IMG/VR virus record: IMGVR_UViG_3300037515_000067
Location: 1 to 41,895 of that record
Source of the DNA: a virus
Taxonomy: Duplodnaviria; Caudoviricetes
Length of the DNA stretch: 41,895 nucleotides
Direction: 5' to 3' (one strand)
Shown: one piece after another, positions 4,465 through 41,529 of the stretch
How the letters are laid out: each line of letters opens with the position of its first letter
Position numbering within the stretch: the stretch's first letter is position 1
Notes under the pieces: generated by a model
What the model was told of the DNA's origin: nothing
Databases searched by the model: none
The model's input: the letters and a program-made list of their open reading frames with translations, nothing else
Position numbers and translations under genes: made by a program

Positions 4465-4664
4465 TTCTCCGCTCCGATCATCCTTGTCGTCTGGTCTTTC
4501 GCTTTAGCTGAAATCCACATACCTAAATTCCCGGCAAAATATCCCAAAAGCATCCAATAGGCTGGATGGACATCAATGCCGCTATGCGCGAATGCTCTAC
4601 CTATTGATGTCCATATAAAGCAAAACACAAATAACTCCACCATGTAGGGCAATATAGCCTTCAT
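4461..4664 (-). CDS. Hypothetical membrane protein
   Basis: Two hydrophobic segments; ATGA overlaps on both sides. Confidence 0.65.
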   Translation of the reverse strand: MKAILPYMVELFVFCFIWTSIGRAFAHSGIDVHPAYWMLLGYFAGNLGMWISAKAKDQTTRMIGAEK

Positions 4665-4945
4665 TTTTCCCCCACTTTCATCATCCCTTCCAGCCGTTTC
4701 AGTTTCCTATCAACCGCCTCCTGAATTACATCGTCACCGAATATCAGCCGAGGGTAAGCGGTGCAGATTTCAGCGTCCGCCAGTTCGTCTATCATGGCCG
4801 TGTAGCTTTCGTCTGTTGGTATATTGAGCCACCGCATTATTGATGCAGCGGCCTCCGCGAATTCTTCCGCTGTTTTCATCATCTGTCGGCGGGAACCCCA
4901 CTCAAGTAGCGCCTTTCCCTGTGTTGTCATTTTTCTAGCAGCCAT
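4661..4945 (-). CDS. MazG-like nucleotide pyrophosphohydrolase
   Basis: QxxKxxEExxE ... DELAD motif; GGAGG RBS. Confidence 0.7.
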   Translation of the reverse strand: MAARKMTTQGKALLEWGSRRQMMKTAEEFAEAAASIMRWLNIPTDESYTAMIDELADAEICTAYPRLIFGDDVIQEAVDRKLKRLEGMMKVGEK

Positions 4946-5130
4946 CTTGTAAATGCCTCCCAAGTTTTTTTAGACGGTGTCTTAATCGGATTTAGTGCTG
5001 ATTCACTCCGGTAAAATGTCGGCCCGTGGTAGTTGTGCCACTCCATCCAAACGCAAGCGCCGTATGGTTTCATGTTTACCCAGTAATCAGGCCCGCAGAT
5101 GAAACCGTGTTCAATTCTCATGCATGCCAT
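4927..5130 (-). CDS. Hypothetical protein
   Basis: ORF track, GGGGG RBS. Confidence 0.6.
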   Translation of the reverse strand: MACMRIEHGFICGPDYWVNMKPYGACVWMEWHNYHGPTFYRSESALNPIKTPSKKTWEAFTRWLLEK

Positions 5131-5281
5131 TTACCCCCCTTTTTATTTTCGGAAAATCCCATTCCTTTTCAAGGTAATTTCCTAAGCACTCCGGGCAATA
5201 ATATCCTTCTCTGTTCACTTCAAGAGGGGTGCCGCACTCCTTGCACCGATAACCTTGTTTGCGTGCTTCCGGTTCTTTCAT
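5111..5281 (-). CDS. Small zinc-ribbon protein (56 aa, not in ORF track)
   Basis: Manual translation MKEPEARKQGYRCKECGTPL...YYCPECLG; fills gap between genes. Confidence 0.55.
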   Translation of the reverse strand: MKEPEARKQGYRCKECGTPLEVNREGYYCPECLGNYLEKEWDFPKIKRGVNGMHEN

Positions 5282-5689
5282 TTATCCCCCTATCACCAGC
5301 AAGGCGGCATCCCTACCGTGTTCATTCGTCCGCCCCTGCCATTTGGTTACGGTGCGGAAATACTCCGCCGTCCATTTTGTAGCGCCCCTTTGTGGGGCAA
5401 TTGCGCGGGACTTGATGCCGTGGAACTGGCAGAATTCCGCCCAGATATTGCAGTCGCGTTTGACCGATCCGACACCCTGCAATACCTCTGCCCCCTTGCT
5501 CCCATACCACCGTCTTAAATTAGCGTCCTCGTATCTCAACTCGATTATTTCAAGTGGCCCGAGTTTTACTATTTTGTCCATTGCGGCGACTATGGACAAT
5601 GATGTCACCTCCAACAGTTTGCCAGTTGGTTTGTGCCAGATGGCAAACCCAGTGTTGACTCCGGGGTCGATACCGATGATAAATTGCAT
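5282..5689 (-). CDS. RuvC-like Holliday junction resolvase
   Basis: IIGIDPG...TGFA N-terminus, central Glu, C-terminal EHGRDAA. Confidence 0.8.
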   Translation of the reverse strand: MQFIIGIDPGVNTGFAIWHKPTGKLLEVTSLSIVAAMDKIVKLGPLEIIELRYEDANLRRWYGSKGAEVLQGVGSVKRDCNIWAEFCQFHGIKSRAIAPQRGATKWTAEYFRTVTKWQGRTNEHGRDAALLVIGG

Positions 5690-5715
5690 TTGCCCTCGAT
5701 GTTGTGACGCATTAA

Positions 5716-5758
5716 AATATGGGTTTATACAGGGGGGTCTATATAAGCCTTGTTAGAT
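5716..5758 (+). repeat. Array-head element copy 1 (attI-like candidate, G6 tract)
   Basis: AATATGGGTTTATACAG..TATAAGCCTTG|TTAGAT, near-identical to 37512-37557; ends in a GTTRRRY box. Confidence 0.7.
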
Positions 5759-6043
5759 GCTATCTGCTATTTCTCGCAGCCTGACAGCCATATCCTTGAG
5801 ACGCTCTGTTTGTTTTTCGATCTCTCGCAACACCACTTTCGGAATGTTTCCCGGCCAATCTTCCGAGTATTCCGACAGCGGCAATACAGTTAAACAGCGT
5901 GCTGCCTGAAAAATCAGCTTTCCCTTGGCGGCTTCAACTCTTTTCAACCTCGCATCTAACCCGGCGCTCAACTCGGACTTGCTACGCAAGTCGCGAATTT
6001 CGACTCCTGTGCAGTCCTTGAACATTTCGCTTTTTTCCATCAT
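5753..6043 (-). CDS. Hypothetical protein, cassette 1
   Basis: AAGGAG RBS and ATG lie inside the attC-like site; TAA stop is the TTA of the R' box at 5752. Confidence 0.7.
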   Translation of the reverse strand: MMEKSEMFKDCTGVEIRDLRSKSELSAGLDARLKRVEAAKGKLIFQAARCLTVLPLSEYSEDWPGNIPKVVLREIEKQTERLKDMAVRLREIADSI

Positions 6044-6086
6044 CTCTACTCCTTGGGCCGCAAGCCCGTTAGCTCAATCGTTGTAT
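5954..6086 (+). mobile_element. attC-like site (133 nt)
   Basis: R'' ATCTAAC, 5-nt spacer, L'' GCTCAACT (extra C), L' CGTTAGC, 6-nt spacer, R' GTTGTAT; GCATCTAAC complements GTTAGATGC at 5752. Confidence 0.8.
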
Positions 6087-6088
6087 TG

Positions 6089-6319
6089 CTAACCAAGGTG
6101 CAAATAAATCATCTTGTCTGGGGTCGATGAATATAGCGCATCATCTTTGCCGGAATAGCCACGGGGTTCCAACGGGTCTTTCTCATAGTACGAAACGCTA
6201 AAAACGGTTCCCTGGCTTTCCCCGGCAGAGTTGTCATGAGCCAAGACATGCACCGCTAATTTCCCACACCCATTTTTCTGTAGTTGCCTGAGTCTGGCTA
6301 TCAGTTTGTTGAGGTTCAT
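6089..6319 (-). CDS. Hypothetical protein, cassette 2
   Basis: AAGGA RBS before ATG 6319; lies wholly between two attC-like sites. Confidence 0.7.
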   Translation of the reverse strand: MNLNKLIARLRQLQKNGCGKLAVHVLAHDNSAGESQGTVFSVSYYEKDPLEPRGYSGKDDALYSSTPDKMIYLHLG

Positions 6320-6344
6320 CGTTTTGTCCTTTTTAAAAATCGCA

Positions 6345-6403
6345 ATACAACCAGTCAATCAACCGGATTCTCTACGCTCTCCCGGTTATTTCGGTCGTTA
6401 TGC
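6345..6403 (+). mobile_element. attC-like site (59 nt)
   Basis: R'' ATACAAC, L'' AATCAACC, L' GGTTATT, R' GTTATGC; GCAATACAAC complements GTTGTATTGC at 6080; near-identical to 37907-37964. Confidence 0.85.
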
Positions 6404-6407
6404 TTTG

Positions 6408-6641
6408 TCATTCCTTTACACGAAACCGGGTAAATCGTCGCTGGTCATCCGTTTCGGTTATCTCCATCTTTCCTAAGGTTTCGCCTTTTTCTTTGCCGAT
6501 GTATTCGCCGACAATGCGGCAGAGTTCGTCATCACTTAACTCAATTTCATTTGTTTTCACGCGAACCTCCTTGTCATGAGGGAGGATATGAACACAGGTG
6601 GAAATCCTACATCTTTGAGCCCCGCTGCATTGTACTTTCAT
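6408..6641 (-). CDS. Hypothetical protein, cassette 3
   Basis: GGAGG RBS; a second internal AAGGAGG+GTG start near 6560. Confidence 0.65.
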   Translation of the reverse strand: MKVQCSGAQRCRISTCVHILPHDKEVRVKTNEIELSDDELCRIVGEYIGKEKGETLGKMEITETDDQRRFTRFRVKE

Positions 6642-6653
6642 GGCACCTCCGAA

Positions 6654-6703
6654 AAATAACCACCCATCGAACCCGATAGGCGGGTTAATTTAATCCGTTA
6701 GCG
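6654..6703 (+). mobile_element. Short, partly degenerate attC-like site (50 nt)
   Basis: R'' AAATAAC, ATCGAACCCG/CGGGTTAAT stem, R' GTTAGCG; 7-nt right spacer and only 5/7 match to upstream R'. Confidence 0.6.
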
Positions 6704-7075
6704 AGAAACCGAAATAATTGATTCTGGGTGCTCGATACAGGACTTTAAATACTTCTCGATCCATGGCACAAAATGAATGTAAAGGCCCCACCCGTTGGGG
6801 GAATCAAACTTTTTATAGTGTTCGGGGCTATCCTTCATCTTCTGGAGGCCATCCGCCAACGGAGCAATAAGCTCTTTGGCGCTAATCAGGCCGAGTTCGT
6901 CAGGCCTCCAAAGGTGCATATATATCCCTGCTTCCTCCGCCATGTCGCCCAGATTATGGGTAATATTGGCATAAAAAAGCGTTTCTCGGTAAGTATGCTC
7001 GTGCTCATTATCGCATTTGCCACAACAACATCTTTCAGTTATTTCATCGCCGTGCAGGGTTACGTCTAAGCTCAT
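6698..7075 (-). CDS. Hypothetical protein, cassette 4
   Basis: GAGGT RBS; NITHNL...SPNGWG motifs I associate with phage hypotheticals; TAA stop is the TTA of R' at 6697. Confidence 0.8.
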   Translation of the reverse strand: MSLDVTLHGDEITERCCCGKCDNEHEHTYRETLFYANITHNLGDMAEEAGIYMHLWRPDELGLISAKELIAPLADGLQKMKDSPEHYKKFDSPNGWGLYIHFVPWIEKYLKSCIEHPESIISVSR

Positions 7076-7103: not shown

Positions 7104-7192
7104 CGCTAACAAACAGGTCAACCAGACCGCGTGAAGCGGCGGGTTTTCAAGGGTACCTCAGTGGCGCGGGCTGGTTACCCTTGGCGTTATCC
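7104..7192 (+). mobile_element. attC-like site (89 nt)
   Basis: R'' CGCTAAC, L'' GGTCAACC (extra C), CAGACC/GGCTG with second unpaired base, L' GGTTACC, R' GTTATCC; TCGCTAAC complements GTTAGCGA at 6697. Confidence 0.85.
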
Positions 7193-8525: not shown

Positions 8526-8547
8526 TCAACCCCCCGCTGTTAAATTA

Positions 8548-33115: not shown

Positions 33116-33190
33116 TGGAGCCGCCGATAGGACTCGAACCTACATTGTTCTCGTTACAAGGGAGATGCCCAACCATTAGGCGACAGCGGC
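33116..33190 (-). tRNA. tRNA-Thr(UGU)
   Basis: Cloverleaf GCCGCTG...CGGCGGC-T-CCA, loop CTTGTAA, TTCGAGT T-loop; one C-C mismatch closing the anticodon stem. Confidence 0.9.
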
Positions 33191-33201
33191 GTAACTTTCA
33201 T

Positions 33202-33247
33202 GCCGGTCTCTCCCGGCTTGTCACCTTTGTTGTGCGGACAGGTCCCG
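33202..33247 (-). repeat. 46-nt structured element upstream of tRNA-Thr
   Basis: CGGGACCTG...AACAAAGGTGACA-AGCCGG-GAGAGA-CCGGC; second copy at 33447-33492. Confidence 0.7.
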
Positions 33248-33337
33248 TTTGTTCGCTCCGAATGATGCCTTTGGCAATCCATCCGAGCATATTTGCCAAT
33301 GCACCCGCAAAAGTTCATGGCAAAACTTGCTTATCTA

Positions 33338-33425
33338 TGGTGGGGCCGCGAGGATTCGAACCTCGAACATCTTTTCAGTACCGCAGGGTTACAGCCTGGT
33401 GCCTTAGCCGTTCAGCCACGTCCCC
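33338..33425 (-). tRNA. tRNA-Tyr(GUA)
   Basis: GGGGACG...CGGCCCC-A-CCA, loop CTGTAAC, long variable region, TTCGAAT T-loop; single mismatches in acceptor and anticodon stems. Confidence 0.85.
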
Positions 33426-36939: not shown

Positions 36940-37302
36940 TTATTCCTCCCATTCCGGATCAATCGCCGCCACCGCGTCCCGAAGCTCCCTCAGTGTGCAA
37001 TCGTCGCCATCGGTTAAATGCAAATTCTCCACCAGAGTGTTGCGAGCCGCATACAACAATTTCCCAAGTTTTGGTGATATATCTTTAGCCCGTTGCGCCA
37101 ATTGCACAGCGTCTCTGATCGTCGCGGGTATCTCGCCGTCACTTGTGAAACAATCCTGGTAGTCGGCATCTTTTAGGATTTTCCGGATAGTAGAATAAAC
37201 ACTTGACTGCCCGGCATCGAACGATATTTTACAGTATCCGAGCGCAGAAAGCGGCGTACCTTTTGACTGCATTTCCGCTGAAACTTCATCCCAGTTTTTC
37301 AT
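36940..37302 (-). CDS. Hypothetical protein
   Basis: ORF track, ATGA overlap. Confidence 0.65.
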   Translation of the reverse strand: MKNWDEVSAEMQSKGTPLSALGYCKISFDAGQSSVYSTIRKILKDADYQDCFTSDGEIPATIRDAVQLAQRAKDISPKLGKLLYAARNTLVENLHLTDGDDCTLRELRDAVAAIDPEWEE

Positions 37303-37496
37303 TCATCTTCCTCCTTTATGATGCCTATCTGCACGATACTACCACCCGGCCCGACATACGCTGCCGCCTGTTCTTTGGTAGCGAAAACCAGCATACATCC
37401 GGTGCAACCATCGGCCATGCCTGAAATTTGCAGGGTTCTTTTTATCCCCATGGTTTCGATTTCAGCTTCTTTTTTCAATGACATCGCAGCCCACAT
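37299..37496 (-). CDS. Hypothetical protein
   Basis: GGAGG RBS directly beside the array-head element. Confidence 0.6.
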   Translation of the reverse strand: MWAAMSLKKEAEIETMGIKRTLQISGMADGCTGCMLVFATKEQAAAYVGPGGSIVQIGIIKEEDE

Positions 37497-37511
37497 TTCA
37501 TCCTCCGCTTA

Positions 37512-37557
37512 AATATGGGTTTATACAGGGGGGGGGGCTGTATAAGCCTTGTTATCG
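37512..37557 (+). repeat. Array-head element copy 2 (attI-like candidate, G10 tract)
   Basis: AATATGGGTTTATACAG..CTGTATAAGCCTTG|TTATCG; TTATACAG/CTGTATAA inverted repeat. Confidence 0.7.
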
Positions 37558-37890
37558 CTCAAACCAAAATATCACCGGTTTCCCGGTTGCCTCGACCAGC
37601 CCGTAACGCTCTGCCATGCGGTAATTTGCGCTCCGCAGTCTCAGCCGCTCTACCTGCGCCGTCATTTCGGCCCGGAACTGTTCCAGCGGATGCACCGATT
37701 TCCAGAGATTGCAAGCACGGCAGGCTGGCATCATGTTATCAATCGTGTCCGCGCCCCGGTATTTAGGGTTTACGGTAGGGTTGCCGCGCCATATTGGTTT
37801 CAGGTGGTCAACGTGCATCTGTTTCAGGGTGATTTCCTGACCACAATATGCACATCTGCCCCCGTATTTTGCATGCACCGTTTTTCTCAT
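37552..37890 (-). CDS. HNH endonuclease carried as a cassette
   Basis: KYGGRCAYCG, MHVDH, NMMPACRACNLWK; TAA stop is TTA of R' at 37551. Confidence 0.85.
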   Translation of the reverse strand: MRKTVHAKYGGRCAYCGQEITLKQMHVDHLKPIWRGNPTVNPKYRGADTIDNMMPACRACNLWKSVHPLEQFRAEMTAQVERLRLRSANYRMAERYGLVEATGKPVIFWFER

Positions 37891-37906
37891 TCTGCAACCT
37901 CGATTG

Positions 37907-37964
37907 CGATAACCAGTCAATCAACCGGATTCGCTACGCTCTCCGGTTATTTCGGTCGTTATAC
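37907..37964 (+). mobile_element. attC-like site (58 nt)
   Basis: R'' CGATAAC, L'' AATCAACC, L' GGTTATT, R' GTTATAC; GCGATAAC complements GTTATCGC at 37551. Confidence 0.85.
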
Positions 37965-38141
37965 GTGCTCGTACCCATCACGCATTCTGGAGGCTATGGA
38001 TTCCAGCTTCTCTGCCATGTACCACATATCATTGTTGTCTTGTCGAGAGACCACGCGGCAGCGGGTGGCATTGCGTCCCCTCAGAATTTTTACCGCCAGC
38101 ATCACCATGGTCGCTTCCAAATGTTTACGAATCCGGAGCAT
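37959..38141 (-). CDS. Hypothetical protein
   Basis: AGGAGG RBS within intergenic repeat; stop overlaps R' at 37958. Confidence 0.6.
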   Translation of the reverse strand: MLRIRKHLEATMVMLAVKILRGRNATRCRVVSRQDNNDMWYMAEKLESIASRMRDGYEHV

Positions 38142-38174
38142 AATTTTGCCGCCTCCTGTTAATTTGCCCCACAA

Positions 38175-38387
38175 TCAACTTAATGGCCGTAATCGCAAAC
38201 CATCTACAATCTCGCATGGCGTTAGAGATCCTATCCCATAGTGTCCACACACATCGCAGAACCACGACTCAACCCCACTATCCGCTGGCACCTTAGGTAT
38301 CCAACCTGCACTCCTGGAGCACCTATCGCAACAATGAATATTGACAACGCCATTCTTATGCTTTGAGAAGTCAACCATCTTAGCCAT
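38175..38387 (-). CDS. Hypothetical Cys-rich protein
   Basis: CCDRC, CDVC; start chosen just after repeat copy. Confidence 0.55.
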   Translation of the reverse strand: MAKMVDFSKHKNGVVNIHCCDRCSRSAGWIPKVPADSGVESWFCDVCGHYGIGSLTPCEIVDGLRLRPLS

Positions 38388-38439
38388 ACCTTCCATTAAT
38401 TTGCCACACAATCCATTACCAATCACCCCTCGTGGCACG

Positions 38440-38661
38440 CTAAAACAACTCATCATACTCGCGGCACGTCCCTTTTTTCTTCACCGCGAATCCTCCTAAA
38501 CAGCAACGCATGTTTTTCTCCTCGCGATATACTCCCACTTTATTACACTCCGGGACCGGTTCGGTAAACTCGGACCTGAAGTTTGCGCAATTTCCGCAGG
38601 TGCGCGGTATCGGTTTCTGGTCGTACCCTTGCCTGATTTTAGCCTCTCCTTGTTTGCTCAT
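38440..38661 (-). CDS. Hypothetical Cys-rich protein
   Basis: AGGAGG RBS; TCGNCANF...RC.LGGFAV. Confidence 0.65.
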   Translation of the reverse strand: MSKQGEAKIRQGYDQKPIPRTCGNCANFRSEFTEPVPECNKVGVYREEKNMRCCLGGFAVKKKGTCREYDELF

Positions 38662-38691
38662 CTTTCCGCCTCCTGTTAATTTGCCCAAAGT

Positions 38692-38925
38692 TCAGCAAAC
38701 GTACCAACATTTAAGATATTTACCTTTCCCGATTGGTATGTAAATTTCCCCGTAATAGTCGTCTTCACAAACCCCGGAACGTTGCTCAACATAGATATGG
38801 TCGATCAACCCCGTAAGGTCTTCTCTCCCCCCTTTTGGACGATCCACAATATCGACAAGACCACATGACCCGCCATCCTCTTTCATAATTTCTATCACTG
38901 CCTTCAAAAACTCTTCCATCTCCAC
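38692..38925 (-). CDS. Hypothetical protein
   Basis: Follows repeat copy; DDYYGEIYIP. Confidence 0.65.
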   Translation of the reverse strand: MEMEEFLKAVIEIMKEDGGSCGLVDIVDRPKGGREDLTGLIDHIYVEQRSGVCEDDYYGEIYIPIGKGKYLKCWYVC

Positions 38926-38957
38926 CCCCGTTGTTAATTTGCCCCACTGTTATACGT

Positions 38958-39161
38958 CTACCACTCAACGCCGGTAAGTTCGATATCTTCCCCGCATTCA
39001 GGACAGGTCAATTCACAACCGATCAATTTGTCCCATCCGTTGTTGAAAATAGGATTCATAATATTGCCGCCATCATCCTGGTCAAAAGCGTCGAACATGT
39101 TTTCACATTTCGGACATTCGACATCGAGAGATGCCCTTAGCGTCGATATAACTCTTTCCAT
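38958..39161 (-). CDS. Hypothetical zinc-ribbon protein
   Basis: AGGAG RBS; VECPKC, LTCPECG. Confidence 0.65.
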   Translation of the reverse strand: MERVISTLRASLDVECPKCENMFDAFDQDDGGNIMNPIFNNGWDKLIGCELTCPECGEDIELTGVEW

Positions 39162-39268
39162 TTCATCTCCTGCTGAATTTGCCCCATAATCAATTCCTAA
39201 CCATCCGCCATGCCGTATCCCTTCGCGCTGTTCCGTTCGTGTCTCCTGACCGGCAAGGCGTTCCATTT

Positions 39269-40772: not shown

Positions 40773-41529
40773 ACAACCCCCTGGCCTTGTCTAGCGAACG
40801 TTGCCAAACTTCGTCAGGGATGGCGCTGGTTGTTGATGAAGTCGATGATGCTATGGTTTGGGTTTTTTGGGAAGATGTTTGTTTTTTGTTTGTTATCTCC
40901 CATGTCCTTATGGTTGCTTTCCAGTCCTTCATCGGGGTTTTATTCCGGCCTACGAGCCATCCACGCGATTTGTTTGAATCAATAAAATATTCCGGATCGA
41001 TTCCATTGTTACGCTCTTTGCAGTAAGCGGCCACTTCTTCAATGGTCGGATGTTTAAATCTCTTGGATGGTTTTCCCTTGTCGGCATCGGAAGATGCACA
41101 AAGGTTTTTATCTGTATCTGTATCTGTATCTGTATCTGTATTCTGTATTCTTACGCCGTTACTGTAACGTTTCTGTAACGTTTCATCTCCGTTACATGGT
41201 TGTTTTTTGTTTTTATCTCTCCAGTTTTTGACCCTTTCAGAACTGCTGTCGCCCTTGAATTGGCGCTTGTCCCATTGCAATGGCTCCATAGTTTCCCTAT
41301 CGGTCAGACCTACGTCTGACAACCTCCTTGCAACCTCGTCCATCTCCCTAACGCTAAGACCAAGTTTGACGGCTAATTTCCTTTTACCCAGTTCTGTTCC
41401 ATCGTCAAAAAGCCCCATATTTTTACAACACAGAATGGCGATAAAGTGCCATCTATCTTCAAAAGCTAAAAGCCTTAACTTTTCATCGTCTACCGCTTCG
41501 CTGTAAAGTCTGAACCACGGATTAGCCAT
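40765..41529 (-). CDS. Phage replication initiator
   Basis: MANPWFRLY N-domain, DTDTDT linker, PTIEEVAAYC...GW..G..PMKDWKA C-domain; upstream of dnaB. Confidence 0.85.
   Translation of the reverse strand: MANPWFRLYSEAVDDEKLRLLAFEDRWHFIAILCCKNMGLFDDGTELGKRKLAVKLGLSVREMDEVARRLSDVGLTDRETMEPLQWDKRQFKGDSSSERVKNWRDKNKKQPCNGDETLQKRYSNGVRIQNTDTDTDTDTDKNLCASSDADKGKPSKRFKHPTIEEVAAYCKERNNGIDPEYFIDSNKSRGWLVGRNKTPMKDWKATIRTWEITNKKQTSSQKTQTIASSTSSTTSAIPDEVWQRSLDKARGLYE
41111..41195. repeat. Repeats inside initiator gene, candidate origin
   Basis: TCTGTA x5 (41111-41140), CTGTAACGTTT x2 (41162-41183), CCGTTAC x2. Confidence 0.5.

Follow-up and report, generated by a model that had tools for sequence, protein, structure and literature searches.

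A probable integron attI site of compact phage type at the head of two attC arrays in a phage genome without intI

Integron receptor sites and cassette arrays in phages

Integrons have been treated as bacterial devices, and the attC arrays found in phages as captured fragments of them. The receptor attI1 is described as a simple site, with boxes L and R, together with direct repeats named DR1 and DR2; it is used double-stranded and attC as a folded bottom strand, one strand being exchanged and the junction resolved by replication, with the direct repeats favouring attI × attC events (PMC8946536, PMC2727003). Non-cognate pairs of attI and IntI are reported to be generally inefficient (PMC8946536). 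The dif site consists of a pair of 11-bp half-sites with a 6-bp central region (PMC5357621). Qi et al. 2023 reported phages with attC arrays but no intI, found that phage attC sites work with IntI1, and described the Shewanella prophage M16-3, in which attI stands at the start of an integron array and of a CALIN (PMC9892861). Integrase-free arrays and duplicated attI sites in phages are thus already published.

The DNA analysed here, referred to as the window, is a whole virus genome of 41,895 nt, linear in its record and 100% complete by CheckV estimate. It belongs to a contractile-tailed myovirus with essentially all annotated genes on the − strand. At the head of both of its attC arrays stands an element of 44 nt (about 5715-5755 and 37511-37554) that, judged from its sequence, is very probably an integron attI site of a compact, phage-borne type. 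The fuller proposition, that a compact phage attI occurs twice in a genome with no integrase of its own and is served by IntI in trans, is considered probable; whether the sites are used in trans at the present day is evenly poised.

Like attI1 (PMC8946536, PMC2727003), the element heads an attC array with a G|TT crossover and has a degenerate inverted L box and an upstream direct repeat; in complete relatives, the position is likewise beside the 5' end of intI. It differs from attI1 in being compact (~45 nt), with one clear repeat, a homopolymer spacer and two copies, and in lying inside a phage operon, without Pc-driven expression, in a genome that has antisense cassettes and no intI. In M16-3, by contrast, the attI type is that of the host (Shewanella) chromosome, and IntI is encoded by the prophage itself (PMC9892861). 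There is also a likeness to attG sites, where IntI inserts cassettes outside the integron at G|WT (Loot et al., 10.1101/2022.09.11.507474); as presented there, attG sites share GWT only, whereas the element is a conserved, duplicated, three-box sequence like intI-adjacent attI. With dif the element has in common a 6-bp centre and inverted arms (PMC5357621), but it lacks a fixed 11-bp right arm, its partners are attC hairpins and its look-alikes adjoin IntI. The main text of PMC9892861 contains no phage-type attI family, cassette ORFs antisense to attC or phage IntI branches beside terminase or int genes, and in mostly non-subscription literature no paper was found on a phage-type attI family or antisense phage-integron cassettes.

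The two copies and their arrays

The preliminary description correctly placed the sequence AATATGGGTTTATACA-G(n)-...TATAAGCCTTG at 5716, with six G, and at 37512, with ten, and correctly noted that identity between the copies ends after TTA (TTAG versus TTAT). Over 44 nt the copies align with 2 mismatches and one 3-nt gap. An exact 23-nt repeat within 42 kb is estimated here to have a chance of about 1e-5; TATAAGCCTTGTT has exact matches at these two places only, and allowing 2 mismatches adds one more, against 0.78 expected. Both copies have a GTTRRRY-type core with a G|TT crossover heading an attC array and a degenerate inverted L box in the register of IntI-adjacent sites. They also carry an accessory repeat, which is expected of attI1 only: TTATAC lies at -30 in copy 2, against a family mode of -31/-30, and in copy 1 at -27. 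The spacer of copy 1 is 3 nt shorter and there are two changes near its L box; from their sequences, copy 2 looks usable and copy 1 partly decayed. The coordinates of all features are collected in Table 1.

Table 1. Coordinates of the two candidate sites, the attC sites and cassettes that follow them, and the neighbouring genes in the window
Feature	Position	Strand	Remarks
Candidate attI-type site, copy 1 (apparently decayed)	5715..5758	+	Rank 26 (general matrix) and rank 3 (clade matrix) of 1,640 GTT sites
Copy 1 boxes	TTATAC 5725-5730; G6 5732-5737; crossover G|TT 5752/5753	+	
Candidate attI-type site, copy 2 (apparently intact)	37511..37557	+	Rank 1 of 1,640 GTT sites, both matrices
Copy 2 boxes	TTATAC 37521-37526; G10 spacer 37528-37537; L box GTATAA 37540-37545	+	
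Copy 2 core	Crossover G|TT 37551/37552	+	6-nt centre follows L box
attC closing cassette 1	5954..6086	+	Long, overlapped by cassette ORF; R'' 7/7 complementary to 5752-5758
attC closing cassette 2	6345..6403	+	Near-identical to array 2 attC
attC closing cassette 3	6654..6703	+	Short, imperfect; R'' 5/7 complementary, by eye; missed by pattern finder
attC closing cassette 4	7104..7192	+	Last site of array 1
attC closing sole cassette of array 2	37907..37964	+	R' GTTATAC completes inverted repeat of empty site
Cassette 1 ORF	5753..6043	-	96 aa, no family; stop codon is TTA of R box
Cassette 2 ORF	6089..6358	-	89 aa, no family; no ribosome-binding site found
Cassette 3 ORF	6408..6641	-	77 aa, no family
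Cassette 4 ORF	6698..7075	-	125 aa, phrog_4019; stop codon in R box
Array 2 cassette ORF	37552..37920	-	HNH-nuclease family, phrog_2118, 4e-43; stop in R box
Holliday junction resolvase gene	5282..5689	-	phrog_1770; start codon 65 nt from copy 1 crossover
65-aa ORF	37299..37496	-	Ribosome-binding site present; start codon 57 nt from copy 2 crossover
Phage gene upstream of array 2	37959..38174	-	Stop codon is TTA of last R' box

Array 1 holds four cassettes and array 2 one. Four of the attC sites (5954, 6345, 7104 and 37907) were found by pattern and the weaker one at 6654 by eye. The cassette directly after each copy of the element ends in a canonical attC, with an R'' that is an exact 7/7 complement of the bases after the G, and in 4 of the 5 cassettes R'' is the exact complement of the first seven bases of its own cassette. 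In free folding the attC of cassette 1 does no better than shuffles. The attC family of array 2 also occurs in phage contigs L018, L019, L021-L025, L037 and L038. With four attC sites and no nearby intI, array 1 fits the definition of a CALIN (at least two attC, no intI nearby); array 2 is the single-site case. The ORF of cassette 1 begins within its own 133-nt attC and runs through it, and L025 and L126 have similar long attC sites with a gene start.

The empty sites had been reconstructed earlier by removing the cassettes in silico, which left an inverted repeat, and these reconstructions are correct: the last attC of array 2 ends in GTTATAC and that of array 1 in GTTATCC. No folded-attC pattern was found after the last site of either array. 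An exact R'' complement is absent within 2.5 kb of the last site of array 1, and past that of array 2 the first lies at 1.7 kb, inside a helicase gene. The empty site reconstructed for array 2 therefore holds three TTATAC boxes that match.

The top strand of the attC sites is the + strand, and all five cassette ORFs are antisense to it, three of them stopping on the R-box TTA. Ribosome-binding sites were found for four cassette ORFs on the − strand and for none on the + strand, so the arrays lack the sense orientation expected of Pc-driven cassettes. No tyrosine recombinase was found in the record, by PHROGs on 67 ORFs or by a six-frame PF00589 search; the record is linear, and some gene may be missing from it. 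No intI adjoins either site, and the position that intI holds in complete phage integrons is occupied by the resolvase gene at copy 1 and the 65-aa ORF at copy 2. The latter is missing in a contig of run X2 (joint 37299-37494), and the gene in the position of intI thus also varies among relatives.

Several further features of the genome were noted. An Rfam search of the 41,895-nt record returned two tRNAs (33119-33425) and nothing else. A TCTGTA hexamer repeat lies at 41113-41140, within the replication initiator gene. Between small ORFs at 38152-39191 (− strand) there are five copies of a 25-nt leader with a fused ribosome-binding site, spaced 237-280 nt apart, with a weaker sixth near 8535; their order is unlike that of attC. 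A run X2 contig lacks 38181-39212, so that the leader-linked modules vary too, and possibly they constitute a second, non-integron module system. Among cultured phages blastn gave weak HNH and short matches only, and no RNA datasets carrying the sequence were among the matches listed. The best-matching sequencing run, perhaps the source, comes from a sediment metagenome. Relatives of the resolvase gene were found at 17 loci (43-54% identity), the closest two of which, by eye, have no site or array.

Kinship with sites beside phage integron integrases

A receptor site of attI type had been proposed for the element; the case is now stronger, as it belongs to a family of sites beside phage TIGR02249 integrases. 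Alignment scans with IntI relatives covered the best 80 of 116 and the best 80 of 321 viral loci, and filtering (score at least 250, at least 500 nt upstream, non-redundant) left 96. A heuristic attC finder made for this work chained 45 of these to attC and left 51 unchained, and chained 11 of 30 cellular loci. There were 37 chained viral loci with a 7/7 match, and 36 after removal of a near-duplicate. Large downstream ORFs, one or two at each of 35 of the 37 loci (45 proteins), matched terminase large subunit at 12 loci and phage integrase at 16, primase only at one and methylase at one, with no match at five. Most of these IntI loci are regarded as phage-embedded because of their downstream terminase and phage integrase genes.

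Between TAA and TTA there are 7 nt in attI1. Among the IntI-adjacent viral sites A at -7 is invariant (36/36), and AA at -7/-6, giving a 6-nt AA..TT spacing, is found in 30 of 36; the 6-nt register is present too, judged by eye, in 4 of the 10 cellular attI regions that could be read. Other preferences are G-14 (92%), C-13 (64%) and G-11 (78%; n = 36), and a [G/T]TTA-like upstream repeat is commonest at -31 (12/36). Copy 2 shows T-8, A-7, A-6, G-11, C-13, G-14 and TTTA at -31. From the array-head site to the start codon of intI the family median is 62 nt, which compares with 57 nt (copy 2) and 65 nt (copy 1) to the start codons of the genes found there instead. In seven loci (L053, L056, L060, L181, L182, L184 and L190) the distance from the attI region to the intI start is 83-84 nt, and by eye there seem to be two upstream repeats about 21 nt apart, like DR1/DR2.

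A general matrix trained without this phage placed copy 2 first among the GTT sites of the window at 11.8 bits, a score reached by 4 of 42,995 simulated sites; since the top score in 4 of 30 simulated windows was at least as high, the rank of copy 2 alone is modest evidence. Copy 1 scored weakly, with 833 of 42,995 null sites as high. A clade matrix ranked the copies first and third, at scores that were reached by 2 and 99 of 57,153 null sites; it was built from 18 of 21 sites linked to one IntI branch after the likeness had been seen, and is therefore partly post hoc. Run blind over nine other loci, this matrix gave its best match (17.5) in L021, at a site that proved to lie 55 nt before an intI start.

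A scan with the shared attC matched nine viral loci, seven of them real. In L023, IntI lies directly before the terminase genes, with antisense cassettes upstream and an attC near-identical to that of this phage; the protein scores 407 bits against TIGR02249 (cut-off 265), 153 against XerC and 145 against XerD, and the head site reads TAA-CGCTTG-TTA with an upstream GTTAA repeat. The arrangement recurs in L042 and L043, where the spacer holds a G5 run. Their intI (1008-1939 in L043) aligns piecewise, leaving a gap around residues 50-90; a deletion or frameshift may have disrupted it. L024 and L025 have attI-like array heads and no intI in the retrieved DNA. Beside intI in L137 is a site for which a loose test over 1.7 kb gave no matching attC; it may represent an empty attI site.

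In a tree of 133 IntI sequences (a quick IQ-TREE run with SH-aLRT support only), viral IntIs overall are not confined to one side of a branch. One viral branch of 19 (support 96), nested in a looser 23, holds the closest look-alikes. Examination of 23 branch-linked loci left 21 once two mis-picked sites had been dropped; 17 of the 21 chain to a folded attC, and six carry TATACAG at -29..-23, the register of copy 2. These six fall in two sub-branches and include one near-identical pair. One IntI phage of the look-alike branch shares the attC of this phage.

The exact element pattern was absent from viral contigs, and six exact-pattern matches in metagenome contigs were rejected as chance, having neither G-run nor cassette. 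A relaxed pattern gave 74 viral matches, two of them the known IntI contigs of L139/L140, with none chained to attC by a finder that also misses the attC of the L139/L140 branch. L210 was similar and was rejected, as it lies inside an ORF with no cassette (clade score 5.0). In GTDB the attC pattern matched five times, three by chance and two genuinely, on phage-like contigs, and the MAGs of these two had no IntI above cut-off. No exact relative of the element was found beside any intI. Among 50,697 GenBank phage records, seven encode an IntI-like protein (E <= 1e-60), all at most 46% identical to that of L023. The GenBank phage L313 (KX853513.1, Virus Rctr41k) has at 4495-5493 an IntI-like gene annotated xerD (44% identity to L023 IntI over 93%), with GTT right after its stop codon; small genes and methylases follow. 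A separate viral IntI branch of 18 rows (support 100; L074, L149, L157-L159, L161-L165, L174, L177, L178, L191-L193, L196 and L197) has a GTT core at or just past the intI stop in most members, and the heuristic finder placed same-strand attC downstream in 2 of the 18. From its sequences this branch may have a second layout, one that would also co-orient cassette genes with intI.

Antisense cassettes are frequent beside viral IntI. Among 37 viral first cassettes, ORFs backed by a ribosome-binding site were antisense in 21, sense in 2 and undecided in 14, and the longest ATG ORF was antisense in 27 and sense in 10. These tests replaced an earlier one on the longest ORF with any start codon (25 antisense and 20 sense of 45). 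In cellular controls from a sample of one phylum, all 11 chained cassettes among 30 loci were sense and none antisense. Of 22 antisense ORFs backed by a ribosome-binding site, 6 take their stop codon from the R-box TTA, and five more end within 10 nt inside the cassette.

The junction itself varies among relatives. A contig about 89% alike, with the same left gene and site, reads TTACCC in place of TTATCG after the G, a variant resting on six letters of one low-depth (2.1) contig. In a run X2 contig carrying the HNH cassette the match begins exactly at G37551, with 23 unmatched letters upstream, and among the matches listed the attC is joined to at least eight other downstream sequences. Cassettes thus vary at junctions in the community, with neither the timing nor the enzyme indicated by the contigs.

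Competing readings, proposed mechanism and significance

The strongest competitor, possible though doubtful, is that the sites are relics: phage integrons lost intI, the attI sites fell out of use, and cassettes now move by homologous exchange between the conserved attI and attC boundary sequences, through Erf and NinB. The phage does encode Erf-like, NinB and Gam-like recombination proteins, copy 1 has drifted from consensus, and the geometry of start codon, ribosome-binding site and attI is kept at both sites with another gene in the place of intI; attI/IntI pairs are, moreover, usually cognate in the account of PMC8946536. Copy 2 is nevertheless a near-perfect family member with three matching boxes. 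Breakpoints of relatives fall at the G itself, as site-specific exchange predicts, and homologous exchange would give such breakpoints only by reusing old junctions. This alternative agrees with the attI reading on the identity of the site, and differs from it only on present activity.

It was suggested earlier that the element could fold as a single-stranded hairpin with a G-run loop; in this form a minimal or decayed attC-like site might be recombined. This is quite unlikely. For copy 2 the fold does beat its shuffles (-6.6 kcal/mol and z -3.7 on the top strand, -4.8 and z -2.5 on the bottom), in a geometry loosely R''-L''-L'-R' with AAT replacing AAC. However, the top strand folds better than the bottom, copy 1 folds no better than its own shuffles (z -0.5), and the element has neither the R'' RYYYAAC, with AAC for pairing to GTT, nor the extrahelical L'' base of an attC. 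Pairing across the 36 family sites (131) was not above that of shuffled partners (123.9 +/- 6.7; 806 of 5,000 shuffles reach the observed value), in a test that is blunt, since its one fixed register fits only 15 of the 36 sites. Any repeat facing its own inverted copy yields such a stem, and that of copy 2 can be read as a by-product of two inverted binding boxes. With no pairing beyond column composition, the hairpin suggestion is not supported.

At contig level, G-run lengths are 6 and 10 in this phage and two fewer than 10 in a contig of run X3. The family spacer is itself G-rich (41% G, 14% C), with GGGG in 6 of 36 sites against 39 of 1,757 background windows; the register of copy 2 (-36) is the modal one, and that of copy 1 (-33) falls at the margin of what the family usually shows. 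The pure G-run is an extreme case of a G-rich, variable spacer between two predicted binding boxes, and it may be hypothesised that its length tunes activity.

That the element is a duplicated promoter, operator or terminator, beside which cassettes landed at a chance GWT (attG-type) site, is very unlikely. The element is an inverted repeat with a stop codon on one side and a ribosome-binding site on the other, and many GWT sites can receive cassettes through IntI, as reported in 10.1101/2022.09.11.507474. Yet copy 2 has no sigma-70 promoter or terminator pattern, no + strand promoter is shared by the copies, and the sole weak promoter match, in copy 1, is at chance level. No LexA box was found by eye, the two half-sites facing the wrong way. 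Chance is unlikely to have brought two independent insertions to the same G of this element, which also matches sites adjacent to intI.

Recognition as a dif-like site by host XerC/D or by another Xer-like recombinase is most improbable. The 6-bp centre (TAA-GCCTTG-TTA) between inverted TATAA/TTATA arms is as in dif but not diagnostic, being the norm beside TIGR02249 integrases, and the enzyme of L023 scores much higher on the IntI model than on XerC or XerD. Two fixed 11-bp half-sites are absent, as judged among the copies and relatives; beyond its first 3-4 nt the right arm differs from cassette to cassette, and the partners are canonical attC sites with an extrahelical base at L'' position 4. 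The usual 6-nt centre beside IntI, the register match in cellular sites and the unfixed right arm make IntI much the likelier enzyme. Of the original interpretation the attI-like receptor is supported, the doubt between IntI and Xer is largely settled in favour of IntI, and the hairpin lacks support.

In the mechanism proposed for the attI reading, IntI would bind the L box (GTATAA) and the R box (GTT with the first cassette bases), as expected from integron biochemistry, and the third box, TTATAC at -30, would act like the accessory site DR1 of attI1. The double-stranded element would be recombined with folded attC cassettes by IntI acting in trans, with one strand exchanged at G|TT and the junction resolved by replication. 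The G-run would act as a spacer from accessory box to L box, its length probably varying by slippage. The IntI would most likely come from a phage of the L023/L124-L147 branch that is resident or infects at the same time, the ancestor of the present phage having probably lost intI or acquired the site alone. Because the cassette genes are antisense, read-through of the operon is predicted: a leftward phage transcript would pass through the array and across attI into the next phage gene, which in complete phage integrons is intI, and no Pc would be needed for cassette expression. With the R-box TTA available as a stop codon, the operon need not be disrupted by an insertion.

It is attractive to consider, as a tentative extension, a phage cassette economy in which full-integron phages, with intI before terminase or int genes, a compact attI and antisense cassettes, exist alongside bare-attI phages served in trans, and a slipping spacer tunes uptake. 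Bare attI sockets would sit in several operons of integrase-free phages, and slippage (G6, G8 and G10 have been seen) would bring the accessory box now into phase with the core, now out of it. In practical terms the analysis yields a short substrate, named candidate enzymes and a matrix that found an unseen phage integron. For phage biology, attI sites of phage type, with or without intI, and inverted cassettes suggest that phages likely add small accessory genes site-specifically, which would provide a concrete, testable source of phage mosaicism.
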